From the IMG/VR virus record IMGVR_UViG_2529292977_000006: a stretch of 4,250 nt of DNA; one strand, 5' to 3'. Below are positions 1-4,250 of this stretch, piece by piece; position 1 is the first letter of the stretch; each line of letters starts with the position of its first letter. The position numbers and the translations under genes are program-made. The stretch is from a virus (taxonomy: Duplodnaviria; Heunggongvirae; Uroviricota; Caudoviricetes). Below the pieces are notes generated by a model. It was not told the origin of the DNA and searched no databases. It saw nothing but the letters and a program-made list of their open reading frames with translations.

Positions 1-582
1 TTATCAGCAACGGAAACGGCCTGGAAGCTGTGGGAACTTATGGGGGAGGTGTATTCGAACCGCTGGACCCAGAAGAACGGGGCTGCGCCGTCGAAGCTCT
101 GGATTGCTCAGATTGGCGCGATGACTGAACAGCAAATCCGGCAGGTCTGCCGTCAGTGCATGGACCGCTGCCGGGCGGGTGAAACGTGGCCTCCGGACCT
201 GGCTGAGTTTGTGGCGTTGATTTCGGAGAGCGGGGCAAATCCATTTGGCCTGACGGTGGATGCCGTGATGGAGGAGTACCGTCGCTGGAGGAATGAATCC
301 TGGCGGTACGACGGGAGTGATAAATACCCGTGGCCACAGCCGGTGCTGTACCACATTTGCCTCGAGATGCGTGACAGAGGGATTGAGCGGCAGATGACGG
401 AAGGTGAGTTAAAACGACTTGCAGAACGGCAACTGACGAAATGGGCAAAGCAAGTTGGTAACGGGATGAGTATTCCCCCGATCCGGAGACAACTCGCATC
501 GCCGAAGTGCCCGCAAGGGCCAACGCCAATTGAATTACTGAAACAGGAATACGAGCGCCGGAAGGCGGCTGGTTTTGTTTGA
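1..582 (+). CDS. Replication protein P-like (lambda P family helicase loader), 5'-truncated by the window edge
   Basis: The reading frame is open from base 1 (LSATETAWKLWEL precedes the first ATG at 40) and ends at TGA 580-582. The translation resembles the central and C-terminal part of lambda P as I recall it: PPDLAEFVALISE vs PSPGQFVAWCRE, a conserved YPW, and IPPIRRQLASP vs IPEPVKQLPV near the C-terminus. Minus-strand ORFs overlapping it are judged spurious. Confidence 0.7.
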   Translation, partial: LSATETAWKLWELMGEVYSNRWTQKNGAAPSKLWIAQIGAMTEQQIRQVCRQCMDRCRAGETWPPDLAEFVALISESGANPFGLTVDAVMEEYRRWRNESWRYDGSDKYPWPQPVLYHICLEMRDRGIERQMTEGELKRLAERQLTKWAKQVGNGMSIPPIRRQLASPKCPQGPTPIELLKQEYERRKAAGFV

Positions 583-615
583 ATCTGAGAAACGATTTTG
601 TCGGAGGAAATTTTA

Positions 616-1332
616 ATGGAAACCGTATCTGACGCACTGAAAGCACTGAAAAGAGCCTCTTCACATGTGGTGGCAGCTCGCCTTGGAATTAGTCGTGAAG
701 AGGCTGTCAACGAACTGTGGAAACTGAAACGCCGTGGAGAAGCGGATAACAAGGGGGCGATATGGTGGCTGACTCAGGCTGGTGAAAGTGAACCGGTGTC
801 ACCGGTACCGAAAGTGACGGCGCAAATGCTGACAGAGGCGATTGAACAACATGGCCCACAAACGGCGGATGAACTGGCATTGATGTTCGGAATTACCTCC
901 CGCCGGGCGAATTCATCGCTGGCAATGGCAATCAGCAAAGGGTGTCTGATTCGCGTGAATCAGGATGGTAAATTTCGTTACTGCATACCGGGCGTTGATT
1001 TACCGGCAGAGCCGAAAGCAGCATCCGTAGCTGAAACGGAGGGTAAAGCCCTTCCTCAGCCAGCTGGTGTTGCGTTACCAGTCCAGGAAACGGCTGCACA
1101 GGAAGAAATTAAAACAGAAGCGGTGGAGGACATTGTGAAGTTGCAGCAATCGTTCACTGAAGCGAAAGCAGATGACCTGATTCTACCATCGCTGCATGTG
1201 GCTAACCGCGAGCTGCGCCGGGCGAAAAGTAATGTTCAGAAGTGGGAGCGAGTCTGTGCTGCGCTACGGGAACTGAACAAACACAGGGATATTCTCCGGG
1301 ATATTACCGCCACCAGAGAGCAGCAGCGGTGA
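616..1332 (+). CDS. Hypothetical protein with two tandem winged-helix-like modules, a Pro/Ala-rich linker and a C-terminal coiled-coil-like tail; occupies the position of ren
   Basis: ATG at 616 is preceded by GGAGG (603-607) at 8 nt; the TTG at 598 used by the ORF track has no SD. Stop TGA at 1330-1332. Two segments have a similar HTH-then-basic-wing pattern (residues ~10-50 and ~75-125), followed by [26 protein letters not shown] and a charged helical tail. It sits immediately downstream of P, as ren does in lambda. Confidence 0.6.
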
Positions 1333-1646
1333 GTGGCTGGAAGAAGTGGCGCTGGGCTGAAATCCTGATACTCCGGCAGTGTGCGGGAACGATGAGAGTC
1401 GAAAGCATCGGTTATCTGATTGGCCGTAGTGAGTCAGCCGTCAGGACGAAAGCGCGGGAACTGGGTATCAGCATGATGTTACGGGGTGATTATCACCAGT
1501 CAGCCAAATGTTCACAGCGTGATATTGAGCTGGCGTGGCAACTGCATCAGCGTGGTGTACCCCGACGGGAAATTGCCGAAAAGTTTGGGATGAAGTTGGG
1601 CGCAGTGAATAACTACGTTTATTTCGACAGGAGGGTTCAGGAGTGA
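1329..1646 (+). CDS. Small helix-turn-helix DNA-binding protein (hypothetical)
   Basis: ORF in frame 0 ending at TGA 1644-1646. GTG at 1329 overlaps the upstream stop (GTGA), a typical coupling arrangement; the alternative start is ATG 1392. The ATG at 1242 would overlap the upstream gene by 90 nt and is rejected. Two HTH-like segments: [21 protein letters not shown] and [21 protein letters not shown]. Confidence 0.5.
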
Positions 1647-1945
1647 GGGTGAGGGTTTATATCGCCGGTCCGATGACGGGATATGAAAATTTTAACCGCG
1701 AGGCATTTCACAAAACGGAAGAGGTGCTGAAACGGGAAGGGCATACCGTTTTAAACCCGGCAGTACTTCCGGACGGGCTGACTCAGCCACACTACATGGA
1801 TATTTGCATGGCAATGCTCCGTTGCGTGGATGCGGTTTACATGCTGAAAGGCTGGCAGCAGTCGGCAGGTGCAGGGGCTGAGCTGGCACTGGAGGAGAAA
1901 CCGGGCCATGCGGTGATTTTTCAGGAGGTGGGCAGTGAATATTGA
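1643..1945 (+). CDS. DUF4406-like protein (nucleoside 2-deoxyribosyltransferase-like fold)
   Basis: GTG at 1643 overlaps the upstream TGA (GTGA) and is preceded by AGGAGG (1629-1634) at 8 nt; stop TGA 1943-1945. The ~100-aa product starts VYIAGPMTGYENFNREAF, which matches my memory of the N-terminal YIAG-x-(I/M)TG motif of DUF4406 / deoxyribosyltransferase-like proteins. This is recall, not a search. Confidence 0.6.
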   Translation: MRVRVYIAGPMTGYENFNREAFHKTEEVLKREGHTVLNPAVLPDGLTQPHYMDICMAMLRCVDAVYMLKGWQQSAGAGAELALEEKPGHAVIFQEVGSEY

Positions 1946-2252
1946 CCCGGCGATAACGATTGATATGGCCCTGAACGCCGGCCTGGCACTTCTTGGTTAT
2001 TTCTACATTATGTTCTGCAGCGGACGATGGCTGTCACTGTTGTTCATGAAAAAATGGAATAAACGCCGTAAGCAGGAGCAACGCCAGAAGGCAATGGATG
2101 CATTTTTCGAAGCCTTCGGAATTGACGGCATGGAACCAGGGGATCCAGCTCGCGCAATCAGCAGAGGGGGTGTAGTAATCCTTGTATATCGGAGTGAAGA
2201 GAAAAATGACGATCACAAAACAACGTGTAGAAGAAATCATATCCCGCATTGA
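1935..2252 (+). CDS. Small membrane protein (hypothetical), one predicted TM helix followed by a basic stretch
   Basis: GTG at 1935 with AGGAGG (1923-1928) at 6 nt; it overlaps the upstream gene by 11 nt. Hydrophobic segment ALNAGLALLGYFYIMFCSGRWLSLLF followed by KKWNKRRKQEQRQK. Stop at 2250-2252. The 3' end overlaps the next gene by 47 nt, so the true C-terminus is uncertain. Confidence 0.45.
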   Translation: MNIDPAITIDMALNAGLALLGYFYIMFCSGRWLSLLFMKKWNKRRKQEQRQKAMDAFFEAFGIDGMEPGDPARAISRGGVVILVYRSEEKNDDHKTTCRRNHIPH

Positions 2253-2523
2253 AATGTATGGACATGGTGCAGGGTATATCGCAGACGAGGTTAATGATCT
2301 GGCTATACTGGCGCTGAATTTATCAAATATCGCGAACCTGAAGCGATACGAGCTTGATATGGGAGGTTGCGACTCGTGCGGTCAGGATTGTGGCGCTGAT
2401 ATGACTGAAGATCCTGATGGTGATTATGTCCTGTTTGATGACGTGGTTAAGTTGTTTGAATTTGATACAACCACTCAAAAGTTAGAAATCCCGGCAAAGG
2501 AGGCAGCCAGTGGGCAAGATTGA
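2206..2523 (+). CDS. Hypothetical acidic protein with a Cys-rich knuckle (GGCDSCGQDCG); N-terminus paralogous to the 3143..3700 product
   Basis: ATG 2206 is chosen over the TTG at 2182 because the resulting N-terminus MTITKQRVEEIISRIEMYGHGAG aligns with MTTITKDRLLTIQHWRETYGPGS of the gene at 3143. Stop TGA 2521-2523. Weak SD (GGAG at 2191-2194). Confidence 0.55.
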   Translation: MTITKQRVEEIISRIEMYGHGAGYIADEVNDLAILALNLSNIANLKRYELDMGGCDSCGQDCGADMTEDPDGDYVLFDDVVKLFEFDTTTQKLEIPAKEAASGQD

Positions 2524-2947
2524 CTATCAGGCACTGCGTGAGGCAGCACAAAACTATCAATCGACGCTGGCGTGGTATCAGGCTACCCCGGACAGCCCAA
2601 ATGCTGAACGGGATTGTGATGCGGCTCTTGCTGCGTTTAAGCGTCACATCCGTCATCGGGAAGCGGATATTATCGCTGATTTGCTGGATGGACTGGAAGA
2701 AGCAAAATCACAACTCAACGAGCAGCGTGAGTATTACGAAGGCGTTATCTCTGATGGGAGCAAGCGTATTGCTGAACTGGAAGCGCGGGAAGTTCAATTA
2801 CCGACTCGCTACGACCTTCGATATGGACACCCGATAAATGCAGATGAGCGACATGTCATGATACCTAAAGAAAATGGCAGTTGGCTTTACCTGATTGACC
2901 TAGAACACGCATTACGCGTCGCTGGCATTCGCATCAAAGGAGAGTGA
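2510..2947 (+). CDS. Ead/Ea22-like family protein (coiled-coil phage early protein)
   Basis: GTG at 2510 with AAGGAGG (2497-2503) at 6 nt, overlapping the upstream gene by 14 nt; stop TGA 2945-2947. N-terminal DYQALREAAQ, central EEAKSQLNEQREYYEGVISDGSKRIAELEAREV and C-terminal AGIRIKGE match what I recall of lambda Ea22 / P22 Ead-like proteins. From memory only. Confidence 0.6.
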   Translation: MGKIDYQALREAAQNYQSTLAWYQATPDSPNAERDCDAALAAFKRHIRHREADIIADLLDGLEEAKSQLNEQREYYEGVISDGSKRIAELEAREVQLPTRYDLRYGHPINADERHVMIPKENGSWLYLIDLEHALRVAGIRIKGE

Positions 2948-2948
2948 G

Positions 2949-3140
2949 ATGAACGGACAAATATCAATTGTTCGACCAGGAGCATGTGACGATCGCGAAA
3001 TACGAATGATTATTCGTCTGGCGATGGGGAAAACAATAACTGCTCTCATTACTCCAGAAAATCTCGCATTAGCATTAACAGGAAAGTCAGACATGCCAGT
3101 AGAGCTAAAGCTGCGAAATGTTGAGATTAAGGTGAAATAG
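2949..3140 (+). CDS. Hypothetical small protein (63 aa)
   Basis: ATG 2949 lies 1 nt after the upstream stop, with AAAGGAGAG (2937-2945) upstream; stop TAG 3138-3140. No recognisable motif; it is called on operon context and the ribosome-binding site. Confidence 0.5.
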   Translation: MNGQISIVRPGACDDREIRMIIRLAMGKTITALITPENLALALTGKSDMPVELKLRNVEIKVK

Positions 3141-3142
3141 CT

Positions 3143-3700
3143 ATGACCACTATTACCAAAGATCGACTGCTGACAATCCAGCATTGGCGCGAAACATACG
3201 GACCGGGTAGCAACGTTGTGCTTCCAGCAGAAGAAGCGGAAGAGCTGGCACGGATTGCGCTGGCATCACTGGCAGCAGTATCGGATGAACGAGCAGCCTA
3301 TGAATTATTTATGGAGAAGCGTTTCGGAGAATCTGTAGATCGCCGCAGAGCAAAAAATGGCGATAGAGATTACATGGTATGGGATATGGCGCTTGGCTGG
3401 ATTATCTGGTGTCACCGCGCCGCCATGCTTCAGGCTGGAAACTTTCGGGAAAATAAGGGTTCGTCAACCAATAATTTTCGGATAATCTCGGAAACGTCAA
3501 CCAACTCTCCGGCAATCCCTGATGAGGTGTTGTCCGCAATCCTGAAGGTCGCCAGGCTTCGTGCAGATTTCGATGCTTCTGAAGTGGACAGGCGAGGTAT
3601 CGGTAGTTGTCTGGATGAGGCCGAGCAAGAACTTATCGTTACCATTAACGAATACGCCAGTCAGATCGCAGTAGAAGCGACACAGGGGGAGAACCAATGA
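3143..3700 (+). CDS. Hypothetical protein (185 aa); N-terminus paralogous to the 2206..2523 product
   Basis: ATG 3143 lies 2 nt after the upstream stop, with AAGGTGA (3129-3135) upstream; stop TGA 3698-3700. Shares the N-terminal pattern MT(T)ITK-x-R...YG-x-G...AL with the gene at 2206. Confidence 0.6.
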   Translation: MTTITKDRLLTIQHWRETYGPGSNVVLPAEEAEELARIALASLAAVSDERAAYELFMEKRFGESVDRRRAKNGDRDYMVWDMALGWIIWCHRAAMLQAGNFRENKGSSTNNFRIISETSTNSPAIPDEVLSAILKVARLRADFDASEVDRRGIGSCLDEAEQELIVTINEYASQIAVEATQGENQ

Positions 3701-3774
3701 GCCGGCCAGATGCATTTGCAGGCGTTGCTATAGCTATTGCTTTTCTAGTATATGTTATTTGTCGGTGGGGGTAA
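3697..3774 (+). CDS. Candidate 25-aa hydrophobic micropeptide (MSRPDAFAGVAIAIAFLVYVICRWG)
   Basis: ATG 3697 overlaps the upstream stop (ATGA), with GGGGGA (3685-3690) at 6 nt; stop TAA 3772-3774. One short hydrophobic helix. Too short for the ORF track; the call rests only on coupling geometry, the SD and hydrophobicity. Confidence 0.3.
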   Translation: MSRPDAFAGVAIAIAFLVYVICRWG

Positions 3775-3809
3775 AAACGTTCGCCGGGATTCACACCAAG
3801 GGAGGGAAT

Positions 3810-3914
3810 ATGTCGGATGATATTTCACTGGTAATGGAAGGCGCTCTGGCTGTTATTGCTGTTGTGGGTGTTTACTGCCTGGTTGTGTTTTTGATGGAGC
3901 GCCTGGGGAACTGA
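3810..3914 (+). CDS. Candidate 34-aa small membrane peptide (MSDDISLVMEGALAVIAVVGVYCLVVFLMERLGN)
   Basis: ATG 3810 is preceded by a strong SD, AAGGGAGGG (3798-3806); stop TGA 3912-3914. One TM-like helix flanked by acidic N-terminal and charged C-terminal residues. Not in the ORF track because of its length. Confidence 0.45.
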   Translation: MSDDISLVMEGALAVIAVVGVYCLVVFLMERLGN

Positions 3915-3924
3915 ATTCATTCCG

Positions 3925-3940
3925 TATGGGAATTCCCATA
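3925..3940. promoter_or_regulatory. 16-bp perfect palindrome TATGGGAATTCCCATA (candidate operator or weak hairpin)
   Basis: The sequence equals its own reverse complement. It lies 11 nt after the stop of the 34-aa ORF and about 15 nt upstream of the candidate hok promoter -35. There is no following T-tract, so a classical intrinsic terminator is unlikely. Confidence 0.3.
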
Positions 3941-3954
3941 TCGGGCAAAACGGT

Positions 3955-3982
3955 TTGCTGTAAAGCGAGAGTTAAGTAGAAT
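3955..3982 (+). promoter_or_regulatory. Candidate sigma70 promoter for the hok transcript
   Basis: -35 TTGCTG (3955-3960), 16-bp spacer, -10 TAGAAT (3977-3982). This would give a leader of about 170 nt before the hok ATG, in line with the long structured leaders of hok mRNAs. Confidence 0.3.
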
Positions 3983-4000
3983 TGCTGCGGGTGCTTGAGG

Positions 4001-4036
4001 CTGTCTGCCTCGGGCATGCCACCGTAAGGCAGACAG
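4001..4036 (+). other. Stable hairpin in the presumed hok mRNA leader (10-bp perfect stem, 16-nt loop)
   Basis: CTGTCTGCCT (4001-4010) is the exact reverse complement of AGGCAGACAG (4027-4036). It is not followed by a U-tract. Confidence 0.35.
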
Positions 4037-4157
4037 AGAAAAGCCCCAGTTAACATTACGCGTCCTGCAAGACGCTTAACATTAATCTGAGGCCCAATCT
4101 ATGCTTCACAAACGTAGGTTAGCCTCTTACGCGCCGAAAGGCAAGGAGAAGCAGGTT

Positions 4158-4250
4158 ATGAAGCAGCAAAAGGCGATGTTAATCGCCCTGATCGTCATCT
4201 GTTTAACCGTCATAGTGACGGCACTGGTAACGAGGAAAGACCTCTGCGAG
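4158..4250 (+). CDS. hok: Hok-family type I toxin (HokD/RelF-like), 3'-truncated by the window edge
   Basis: ATG 4158 is preceded by AAGGAGAAG (4142-4150). The translation MKQQKAMLIALIVICLTVIVTALVTRKDLCE matches the N-terminus of E. coli HokD/RelF as I remember it, including the TM helix and the conserved Cys. An in-frame ATG at 4101 with its own SD lies upstream. Confidence 0.75.
   Translation, partial: MKQQKAMLIALIVICLTVIVTALVTRKDLCE

Follow-up and report, generated by a model that had tools for sequence, protein, structure and literature searches.

A chimeric Ead/Ea22-family gene in the P-to-Q slot of a Rac-like prophage of Escherichia coli O157:H7 type

The 4,250-nucleotide stretch of viral DNA analyzed here (IMG/VR record IMGVR_UViG_2529292977_000006; hereafter, the window) carries an ead gene that we read, with a probability of about 0.8, as encoding an Ead/Ea22 protein in the P-to-Q slot of a Rac-like, O157:H7-type prophage at potC, the gene being chimeric, recombined through short linkers at its ends, and favoring lysogeny through its product. 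The features of the window are collected in Table 1.

Table 1. Features of the window, in window coordinates
Feature	Position	Strand	Remarks
Replication protein P (lambda P family)	40..582	+	PF06992 Phage_lambda_P, 61.5 bits; PHROG 109 P-like helicase loader
DUF1627 protein, backbone gene of this prophage type	598..1332	+	PF07789, 273 bits
Small helix-turn-helix protein	1329..1646	+	PHROG 323
DUF4406 protein, nucleoside 2-deoxyribosyltransferase-like	1643..1945	+	PF14359, 115 bits; PHROG 355
DUF4752 protein, first gene of left insert	1935..2252	+	PF15944, 132 bits
Hypothetical protein, second gene of left insert	2206..2523	+	PHROG 3126, E 3.3e-66
Shine-Dalgarno AGGAGG	2498..2503	+	6 nt 5' of ead GTG; read from sequence
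ead/Ea22-like CDS	2510..2947	+	145 aa, GTG start, ends ...AGIRIKGE*; RefSeq WP_000515959.1
5' conserved linker, codons 1-11 MGKIDYQALRE, exo-xis type	2510..2543	+	Left crossover inside
Nin-slot-lineage ead body: LAWYQ cassette, coiled-coil LNEQREYYEGVISDGSKRIAELE, short C-terminal segment	2544..2914	+	
3' conserved linker, ...AGIRIKGE + stop	2915..2947	+	Right crossover inside
63-aa protein	2949..3140	+	PHROG 1222, E 1e-40
185-aa hybrid gene, DUF551-like N-terminal two-thirds	3143..3700	+	No Pfam match
hok/sok regulatory RNA region	3989..4163	+	Rfam RF01794 sok, 114.9 bits, cut-off 59
hokD toxin gene, cut by window end	4158..4250	+	RefSeq hokD at matching position; Pfam HOK_GEF

Family assignment and genomic position of ead

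The sequence-only reading had assigned the gene to the Ead/Ea22 family, and database searches uphold this. Its product matches Pfam PF13935 (Ead_Ea22; InterPro IPR025153) above the gathering score, at 51.4 bits (E 2.2e-13; cut-off 27), in two stretches, the better of which aligns residues 3-65 with profile positions 2-79, and BLASTP pairs it with lambda Ea22 at E 3e-17 (41% identity over 118 aa). It also matches PHROG 250 (E 2.5e-44) and has 4,748 database homologues; of the best 120, nearly all of those with a source name are called ead/Ea22-like, and PF13935 is precomputed for almost all homologues among the matches listed. The family name is already in RefSeq, where the identical protein, WP_000515959.1, is called “ead/Ea22-like family protein”. 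The N-terminal tag, MGKIDYQALREAAQ, fits the family segment MSxI[DN]YQALREAA, within which L9, R10, and E11 are invariant, and I4, Y6, and Q7 nearly so, across a 16-sequence alignment that includes lambda. At the opposite end, the protein closes on ...AGIRIKGE and thus carries the terminal basic-Gly-Glu (+GE) tripeptide that is a family trait of Ea22 proteins (PMC7093339), with I140, R141, I142, and G144 invariant across family alignments. Between the tags, a central coiled coil is predicted as a helix over residues 51-95, with a core close to that of the lambda Ea22 coiled coil. At the level of sequence comparison, membership in the Ead/Ea22 family is confirmed as authentic.

The gene is tightly coupled to both neighbors in an operon-like array: its start overlaps the stop of the preceding ORF (2206-2523) by 14 nt, a single nucleotide separates its TGA from the ATG (2949) of the following ORF, and no gaps separate the genes of the array. 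The AGGAGG before ead is also kept in PhiR49_2 and in nin-slot loci. Differences among 14 close ead DNA variants are distributed 6/15/33 over codon positions 1/2/3, mostly at position 3, and the exact protein is indexed in 7,190 blocks of an assembly collection. Alternative ORFs over the region (frame-2 2520-2837; minus-strand 2447-2656, 2912-3184, and 2323-2478) had no phage family match and were set aside as spurious. On the plus strand, no promoter-like site was found from position 1 to ~4075, and sites resembling promoters or terminators occurred in the window at no higher frequency than in shuffled sequence. A search of NCBIfam gave no meaningful match.

Placement downstream of P and away from int-xis, which the sequence-only reading had also proposed, is equally borne out, as the Phage_lambda_P match lies at 40-582 and, in full genomes, P is upstream and RusA and Q are downstream; a synteny comparison across prophages found the same P-to-Q position in O157 genomes. 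The prophage, which is of E. coli O157:H7 type, Rac-like, and integrated at potC, reads int-xis-...-racR / ydaS-ydaT-dnaT-like-P-DUF1627-HTH-DUF4406-DUF4752-hyp-EAD and continues hyp-DUF551-like-hok-DUF968-RusA-Q; the RefSeq start of P corresponds to window position 121. Rather than lying between exo and xis and being read leftward from pL, ead is transcribed in the same sense as P and sits between it and hok-DUF968-RusA-Q, and this P-to-Q position is the nin-equivalent slot, with the hok/sok region as the right border of the variable slot. The counterparts in lambda and P22 are indeed early-left genes, as had been stated: lambda ea22 lies between xis/ea8.5 and exo, and P22 eaD lies between xis and abc/erf. 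In most nin-slot loci, the DUF1627 gene is upstream of ead, and in the backbone arrangement (e.g., loci L041 and L024) ead directly follows the DUF4406 gene. The O157 potC prophage has a truncated exonuclease gene and only a few genes left between xis and racR; this prophage looks defective, and ead may therefore be rarely expressed.

Chimeric structure of the gene

The sequence-only reading had further proposed modular shuffling into a nin-like slot, and the crossover points of such shuffling are directly visible in blastn breakpoints and base-level alignments. These alignments show the window ead to be a three-part chimera, composed of an exo-xis-type end, a nin-slot body, and a second exo-xis-type end. 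On the left, the window tracks the exo-xis ead of PhiR49_2 and of a Stx1a phage to ~2543 and then switches to the nin-slot L041 type; nin-slot and exo-xis ead genes share 64-76% nucleotide identity at +0..+39, with about 20-40% in the sequence to each side. Overall, window 2498-2944 is 96.4-96.7% identical to L041/L024 (blastn). On the right, the L041 type extends up to GGAGAG and gives way, from 2915 on, to the type of the Stx1a-phage exo-xis module, the last ~30 nt of ead and the downstream genes being of exo-xis type. In this 3' linker, CTGGCATTCGCATCAAAGGAG is invariant across all four aligned ead genes. Many nin-slot copies carry an 8-aa extension at the Ead end (...KGEEHGNKTRG), which blurs anchoring on the stop codon, and the 3' linker was read from direct alignment. 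In these alignments, both switches thus lie inside the short terminal sequences that all ead genes conserve.

The flanking genes carry the same exo-xis signature. The left insert, 1932-2497, is of exo-xis type and comprises the DUF4752 gene and the PHROG 3126 gene; the DUF4752 region has 92% and 91.6% nucleotide identity to the exo-xis regions of the Stx1a phage and PhiR49_2, respectively, and the gene is absent from backbone loci, while the PHROG 3126 gene lies directly upstream of Ea22 in PhiR49_2. To the right, the 63-aa PHROG 1222 gene has 97% nucleotide identity to the exo-xis region of the Stx1a phage, is found 3' of ead in exo-xis regions as well, and forms a trio with ead and a DUF551 gene upstream of xis-int in three loci (L019-L021). 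The 185-aa hybrid gene resembles, over its N-terminal two-thirds, the DUF551-protein gene of exo-xis modules, with its C-terminal part swapped and DUF551 itself missing; inside it, at about 3515-3523, the window ceases to be homologous to O157 SS52 and the Stx1a phage. The outer left junction (about 1925-1935) has only a GAGGTG-type ribosome-binding-site microhomology common to both sides, and long homologies are absent from the outer junctions of the inserts. In principle, the direct DUF4406-ead form could have arisen by deletion.

A likely explanation for this structure is that the conserved ead ends serve as homology linkers: a resident nin-slot ead would have undergone homologous recombination with the exo-xis region of another phage, either co-resident or infecting, and early-left accessory genes would thereby have entered the early-right operon. 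That recombination in lambdoid mosaics takes place at conserved sequences on gene boundaries is an established concept, from comparisons of HK97 and HK022 and of nin regions by the Hendrix/Hatfull and Clark groups. The window resembles those sites in that short conserved gene ends surround non-homologous interiors, with crossovers inside the ends, but its linkers differ in being located inside the coding ends of one gene and in joining the pL and pR arms rather than equivalent genome positions.

The body between the linkers belongs to a nin-slot lineage with an N-terminal cassette of its own (NYQSTLAWYQATPDSPNAERDC...), normally directly after the DUF4406 gene, and without the first coiled-coil segment (ERNQQYIKRRDQENEDIALTVGKLRVELE) found in most exo-xis copies. 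The LAWYQ cassette occurs in 25/29 distinct nin-slot ORFs versus 0/24 exo-xis ORFs, and none of 50,697 deposited phage genomes covers the ead body (2544-2914) to >=80%. A tentative extension, which we consider possible but would not yet favor, is that ead comprises two position-specific lineages whose ends are portable linkers, making the gene a hub between the arms, with a right-arm function possibly distinct from a bias toward lysogeny. If so, DUF4752, PHROG 3126, PHROG 1222, and DUF551 genes would pass between early-left and early-right regions, in both directions, via the ead ends.

Protein architecture, function, and competing readings

The published plan of Ea22 has three parts, with a C-terminal domain that is variable, often acidic, and dimeric in a full-length protein that is tetrameric (PMC10834534). 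The predicted architecture of the window Ead matches this three-part plan: in an AlphaFold2 model, helices span residues 6-25, 32-47, and 51-95, the long last helix having a pLDDT of about 80-90, followed by a flexible stretch (residues 94-115, pLDDT <50) and a small terminal element modeled, at low confidence, as a beta-hairpin and helix (117-137). The coiled coil is shorter than in most members, lacking the ERNQQYIK...VELE segment. Foldseek searches of the model, mostly one long helix, against PDB and BFVD returned no match below E 0.2, and a PDB sequence search returned only chance coiled-coil matches (E >=0.2); the structure of the lambda Ea22 C-terminal domain, which was solved by NMR (PMC10834534), was not recovered because the C-terminus of the window Ead is different.

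Relative to lambda Ea22 (NP_040612; 182 aa, pL operon), the window Ead has in common the Pfam Ead_Ea22 match, the terminal AGIRIKGE, the N-terminal tag M-x-x-I-[DN]-x-Q-A-L-R-E-A-A, and a nearly identical coiled-coil core (LNEQREYYEGVISDGSKRIA), and neither protein has the N-terminal segment of 63 aa that marks the Stx-phage variants. Unlike lambda Ea22, however, it has another N-terminal cassette, lacks the first coiled-coil segment, and lacks the lambda C-terminal domain, with similarity stopping near residue 108/118; in place of the lambda-type beta1-beta2-alpha1-beta3-beta4-alpha fold with its HRYYGVGG loop, there is a shorter, different segment. The gene, too, differs in position, between P and Q in a rightward operon rather than between exo and xis. 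With the Ea22 variants of Stx phages and EHEC (V1-V3; Goddard et al. 2024, PMC10834534), it shares the family, the mosaic principle, and the end tags; over its last ~60 residues it shares 85% identity with the 233-aa protein of the 933W-like phage Ss-VASD, and the DUF4752, 63-aa, and DUF551-type genes that usually neighbor Stx-phage Ea22 genes also flank the window ead. Stx-type genes differ in being longer (e.g., the 256-aa protein of Stx1a phage Stx1_9793), in having the Stx-type N-terminal and/or other C-terminal domains, and in lying in the exo-xis region upstream of xis-int. P22 EaD (YP_063721; 197 aa), from the early-left ea region, is the protein after which the shared Pfam family is named; its pairwise similarity to the window Ead is negligible, covering the C-terminal AGI(K/R)(V/I)KGE tail (E 0.04) and otherwise insignificant (E 0.04-0.09).

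Ea22 is pro-lysogenic in that it raises lysogenization and lowers burst (PMC7093339), and two-hybrid screens with it found no partner (PMC10834534). Of the two roles that the sequence-only reading named as proposed for the family, the pro-lysogenic one is documented (PMC7093339, PMC10834534), whereas for anti-defense we found no paper linking it to Ea22, and PADLOC defense models matched none of the ten window proteins. By analogy, the window Ead is probably an early coiled-coil protein that favors lysogeny, as lambda Ea22 does. [quoted passage not shown] Its gene would be co-transcribed with the replication genes from a pR-like promoter, which would keep the delayed-early timing that exo-xis genes obtain from pL. 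[quoted passage not shown]

These differences bear on a competing reading, in which nin-slot Ead, having its own N-terminal cassette and a shorter coiled coil, may have ceased to behave like lambda Ea22 and diverged toward a right-arm task (replication, recombination, or hok/sok maintenance) or has become a lysogen-benefit “moron”. In our sample, only nin-slot copies carry the LAWYQ cassette, in the proportions given above; it is absent from cultured phage genomes yet present in ~15% of E. coli genomes, which fits retention in (cryptic) prophages; and the Paa/AdfO adhesin occupies the same slot of a related prophage, so the slot accepts host-benefit cargo. Residues 3-65 nevertheless still match the Ead_Ea22 profile, the coiled-coil core and C-terminal segment are common to exo-xis copies, and neither a promoter of its own nor a defense-family match was detected, which leaves divergence of function a doubtful but serious contender. 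It is extremely improbable that the protein is instead an RseB/MucB-like sigma-E regulatory domain protein. Pfam MucB_RseB (PF03888) does score 23.6 bits (cut-off 22.3) over residues 65-116, and in RefSeq some close relatives are called [quoted passage not shown], but the alignment covers 51/178 profile positions, and the matched residues are the coiled-coil helix and the low-confidence loop (pLDDT <50, 94-115). The N-terminal domain of RseB is a beta-rich periplasmic fold; in the window Ead, a fold over that whole domain is not seen, no signal peptide is apparent in the sequence, and Foldseek found no structural match to any solved structure.

The history of the locus could also be read differently. 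A decaying prophage might have moved a piece of its own left arm to the right arm with no exchange between phages, in line with the eroded left arm and truncated exonuclease gene of the O157 potC prophage. This is very unlikely, given that a relative whose left arm is intact and of Rac type (L013; full exonuclease, ydfE, DUF1482, dicB) has the same right-arm ead, that right-arm DUF4406-ead occurs with several integrases and replication modules and in 827 genomes, that the inserts on both sides of ead share 92-97% identity with the exo-xis regions of other phages, and that thousands of genomes contain no ancestor in which the ead module occupies the exo-xis region while the right slot is empty. 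A chimeric assembly with an artefactual gene order would account for the window being covered to at most 96% in any complete E. coli genome, for the break in potC-prophage homology at 3515-3673, and for the 100% identity of 3400-3960 to a second O157 prophage; natural recombination between two prophages is just as likely an origin, because both candidate parents share the P...hok layout. Since positions 1-3515, from P past ead, are collinear and 99.8% identical in closed O157 genomes, and 1640-2947 is 100% identical in closed genomes, we regard an artefact as highly improbable for the gene order around ead. The preferred reading remains that of a linker-recombined Ead/Ea22 gene in the P-to-Q slot.

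Prevalence and significance

The P-to-Q placement is usual for this Ead subtype and common, not rare, in E. coli prophages. The DUF4406-to-ead junction is present in 827 of 5,426 complete E. coli genomes (~15%), and the inserted O157 form, with the DUF4752 insert, in 286 complete genomes; the 100% identical copies of 1640-2947 already described come from closed genomes. Among 80 viral-contig relatives, 51 lie in the P-to-Q slot and 22 in the exo-xis region, a ratio biased by the retained loci being the closest relatives of the window Ead itself. At least three unrelated integrase types occur among the nin-slot ead loci. We found no paper that places ea22 in a nin-type region, and surveys of Ea22 variants covered the exo-xis region only (PMC10834534).

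The window ead is a neat case of phage gene shuffling and no surprise, and it leaves the understanding of lambdoid mosaicism unchanged. Its clear crossover points offer a concrete, testable case of gene ends shifting accessory genes between early operons. Few exo-xis proteins have been measured to affect whether Stx phages take the lytic or the lysogenic course, and Ea22 is one of them. Given the abundance of a separate P-to-Q lineage, present also in O157:H7, EHEC may hold more Ea22-family genes than surveys have counted, and these extra genes could influence co-resident Stx prophages in trans.

Family membership and position of ead

Our results support the sequence-only reading that a genuine Ead/Ea22-like gene, ead, lies at 2510-2947. 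Its product matched the Pfam profile PF13935 (Ead_Ea22) at 51.4 bits (E 2.2e-13; gathering score, 27), PHROG 250 (E 2.5e-44) and, in BLASTP, lambda Ea22 (E 3e-17; 41% identity over 118 residues), with LNEQREYYEGVISDGSKRIA nearly the same in this protein and the ead product. The expected similarity was therefore found to lambda Ea22, while pairwise similarity to P22 EaD, the other protein proposed for comparison, is confined to the tail. The protein has the profile score, N-terminal tag, coiled coil and +GE tail of the family. A search of a 5.8-billion-protein collection returned 4748 homologues, and nearly all of the best 120 of these with a source name are labelled ead/Ea22-like; the exact protein occurs in 7190 indexed blocks of an assembly collection, and RefSeq has already assigned the family name to the identical protein (WP_000515959.1, 'ead/Ea22-like family protein'). 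A comparison of 14 distinct close DNA variants gave 6/15/33 differences at codon positions 1/2/3, most of them at position 3, and no alternative-frame or antisense ORF overlapping ead matched a phage family. The packing is operon-like: the start of ead and the stop of the upstream ORF overlap by 14 nt, and the ATG of the next ORF is at 2949, 1 nt past the ead TGA.

The Pfam profile MucB_RseB also matched residues 65-116 (window 2702-2857), with a borderline 23.6 bits (cut-off, 22.3); we regard this match as spurious, given that it falls on a predicted helix and a disordered loop. Four relatives (P0010, H89, H90 and H103) are named 'sigma-E factor regulatory protein RseB domain-containing protein' in RefSeq, apparently because of this borderline match on the coiled-coil part, and the name looks like a mis-annotation.

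Window 1-3515 is 99.8% identical to an Escherichia coli O157:H7 prophage adjoining potC. Left of the divide, this prophage is ordered int - xis - (truncated exonuclease) - DUF1391 - racR, and right of it, ydaS-like - ydaT - DnaT-like - P - DUF1627 - small HTH - DUF4406 - DUF4752 - hypothetical - Ead - hypothetical - DUF551 - hokD - DUF968 - RusA - Q-type antiterminator - lysis genes. This order places ead between P and Q, in the same direction as both, a position that corresponds to the lambda nin region. In lambda, by contrast, ea22 is on the opposite arm, between ea8.5/xis and orf61/exo, and P22 eaD lies between xis/eaC and abc/erf. Hence, ead does not hold the exo-xis position of ea22, and the gene orders of O157, lambda and P22 agree with its proposed placement downstream of P. 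The exonuclease beside xis is a truncated pseudogene in the O157 SS52 potC prophage (L001, 16069-16470), whereas a relative (L013) has kept a full 632-aa exonuclease gene, plus ydfE, DUF1482 and dicB; thus, the O157 potC copy looks defective.

A consensus scan revealed no promoter-like site on the + strand from position 1 to ~4075, and promoter-like and terminator-like sites in the window showed no excess over shuffled sequence, compatible with a single early-right transcript carrying ead and the replication genes.

Features of the window and segments of the Ead protein
Feature	Position	Strand	Details
Lambda-P-family replication ORF	40-582		61.5 bits
DUF1627 gene	598-1332		downstream of P
DUF4406 gene	1643-1945		PHROG 355, E 4e-43
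PHROG-3126 ORF	2206-2523		upstream ORF overlapping ead
AGGAGG	2498-2503	+	6 nt before ead start
ead ORF	2510-2947	+	145 codons, GTG start
Hybrid ORF	3143-3700		185 aa, break ~3515-3673
Hydrophobic ORF MSDDISLVMEGALAVIAVVGVYCLVVFLMERLGN	3810-3914		34 aa, just upstream of hok/sok
hok/sok type I toxin-antitoxin	3989-4250		Rfam sok RF01794, 114.9 bits at 3989-4163
hokD ORF	from 4158		extends past window end
N-terminal tag	Ead residues 1-14		invariant
N-terminal cassette NYQSTLAWYQATPDSPNAERDC...	Ead residues 15-60		variable; 25/29 right-arm genes, 0/24 exo-xis genes
Second coiled-coil segment	Ead residues ~62-95		
Short C-terminal segment	Ead residues ~96-137		common to copies in both arms
AGIRIKGE tail	Ead residues 138-145		invariant

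Protein anatomy and possible function

Mosaicism is already well known for the Ea22 family and lambdoid phages, and the ead protein alignments show the family's mosaic plan, which is already in print (PMC7093339, PMC10834534). Surveys of Ea22 variants (V1-V3) were restricted to the exo-xis region (PMC10834534), and our literature search returned no paper mentioning right-arm ead copies. The first coiled-coil segment (ERNQQYIK...VELE), which 15 of 24 exo-xis copies have, is missing from the window's Ead, as is the C-terminal domain of lambda Ea22; the Ea22-like protein of Shigella phage Ss-VASD (933W-like) shares 85% identity with Ead residues 85-144. An AlphaFold2 model (41-sequence alignment; mean pLDDT, 73) predicted helices at residues 6-25, 32-47 and 51-95, disorder at 96-115, and a low-confidence beta-hairpin and helix at 117-137. 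Foldseek comparison of this model with the PDB and with viral models detected no significant structural neighbour, and a sequence search of the PDB gave no match, which fits the absence of a lambda-type C-terminal domain.

Ead would act as a coiled-coil scaffold that oligomerises and carries a small, variable element at its C-terminus, and ead is presumably expressed as a delayed-early gene together with the replication genes. As this is the temporal class of the exo-xis genes transcribed from pL, a change of arm need not alter its timing. Deletion of ea22 from lambda and Phi24B results in fewer lysogens and more progeny (PMC7093339), in line with the pro-lysogenic role suggested earlier for the family, and lambda Ea22 forms tetramers, its C-terminal domain having no activity by itself (PMC10834534). 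By homology, we tentatively suggest that Ead would favour host survival and lysogeny via a partner. The anti-defence role also put forward earlier found no support, with no PADLOC match for ead and no paper tying ea22 to anti-defence in our literature search.

Right-arm ead genes and the chimeric origin of ead in the window

Placement of ead between P and Q is common rather than exceptional. Using tblastn with 31 marker proteins, we classified 80 viral-contig loci encoding ead relatives, a sample skewed to close relatives of the query: 51 belong to the P-to-Q slot (same-strand P, DnaT-like, DUF1627 or DUF4406 upstream and/or hok, DUF968, RusA or Q downstream), 22 to the classical exo-xis class (same-strand cI, exo or bet upstream; xis or int downstream), 6 were unclassified and 1 was mixed. 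In most right-arm loci, ead directly follows DUF4406, whose start lies 293 nt before it, and the integrases of these loci are of three or more unrelated types. The DUF4406-to-ead junction is present in 827 of 5426 complete E. coli genomes, 286 of them with the O157 form (two extra genes between DUF4406 and ead). None of 50,697 deposited phage genomes covered at least 80% of the ead body (2544-2914), the matches being confined to the coiled-coil and C-terminal parts. By these counts, this Ead subtype dwells in the right arm and is a frequent prophage resident, and many of the prophages involved are probably cryptic. DUF4406, the constant left neighbour of right-arm ead genes, encodes a protein matching a PHROG annotated as nucleoside 2-deoxyribosyltransferase.

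The blastn breakpoints revealed that ead is a chimera. Backbone loci such as L041 and L024 run from window 1640-1931 (DUF4406) directly into 2498-2944 (ead), at 96.4-96.7% identity in blastn, without 1932-2497 and 2945 to ~3946; the integrase of L041 is of the potC type, as in the window's prophage relative. Both absent blocks match exo-xis regions of other phages: that of Stx1a phage Stx1_9793 is 92% identical to window 1925-2209 and 97% to 2915-3523, and phage PhiR49_2, with the order DUF4752 - PHROG 3126 - Ea22 - 63-aa gene flanked by cI and xis-int, is 91.6% identical to 1954-2543. In base-level alignments of the ead 5' end, exo-xis identity continues through GTGGGCAAGATTGACTATCAGGCACTGCGTGAGG, and the right-arm type begins at CAGCACAAAACTATCAATCG; at the 3' end, where CTGGCATTCGCATCAAAGGAG is common to all four aligned genes, the right-arm type persists until GGAGAG and the exo-xis type resumes from TGAGATGAACGGACAA. 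When 29 distinct ead genes of the right arm are compared with 24 distinct ones of the exo-xis class, nucleotide identity between the groups is 64-76% in the first 40 nt and ~20-40% either side. The outer junctions of the exchanged blocks share just a few similar bases at a ribosome-binding site. The module shuffling proposed for this slot is thus visible in its breakpoints.

A further break in homology affects the right end of the window, and coverage of the window by any one complete genome reaches 96% at most. The match to the potC prophage is lost at 3515-3673, and the O157 strains concerned have a second Rac-like prophage to which 3400-3960 is 100% identical; the 3143-3700 gene is therefore a hybrid without the DUF551 domain. 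The first ~125 residues of its product correspond to the DUF551-protein gene after ead in O157 SS52 and the Stx1a-phage exo-xis region, and its C-terminal part is PHROG 14306-like, the DNA being 100% identical to a 187-aa gene of the second prophage in O157 and O26 (TR01, 2.6 Mb; L102, 8738-9301). Two prophages resident in one strain may have recombined naturally here, or the sequence may have been joined in assembly; either way, the ead finding is unaffected. In relatives, the variable slot ends on its right side at the hok/sok locus. The 34-aa ORF, which RefSeq lists as hypothetical, is conserved between the two O157 prophages and may encode a small membrane protein.

DUF1627 genes, too, are found on either arm, after P in the window and early-left in Ss-VASD (L006, 9466-9855), so Ead may not be the sole accessory family to move from one early operon to the other. 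The PHROG-3126 protein and the 185-aa protein start alike (MTITKQRVEEI... in 2206-2523 and MTTITKDRLLTI... in 3143-3290), the latter with a weak PHROG 3126 match (E 0.0037), which may represent another shared gene-start module. In a related prophage, Stx2a phage Stx2_14040/PPompW (L002, 8221-8967), a Paa/AdfO adherence-factor gene replaces the ead module between DUF1627 and hok/gef; thus, the slot accepts virulence cargo too.

The simplest explanation for the chimera is that a resident right-arm ead underwent homologous recombination, within its conserved ends, with another phage's exo-xis region, putatively importing the DUF4752, PHROG-3126, 63-aa and DUF551-like genes to the right arm. Some exo-xis regions (L019-L021, 7412-8495) contain two close genes with Ead_Ea22 matches (60 aa and 164 aa) and a 137-aa gene between them, an arrangement that fits repeated recombination at ead ends. 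More broadly, and with a probability of roughly 0.3, Ead may comprise two position-specific lineages, whose gene ends would bridge gene flow between both early operons.
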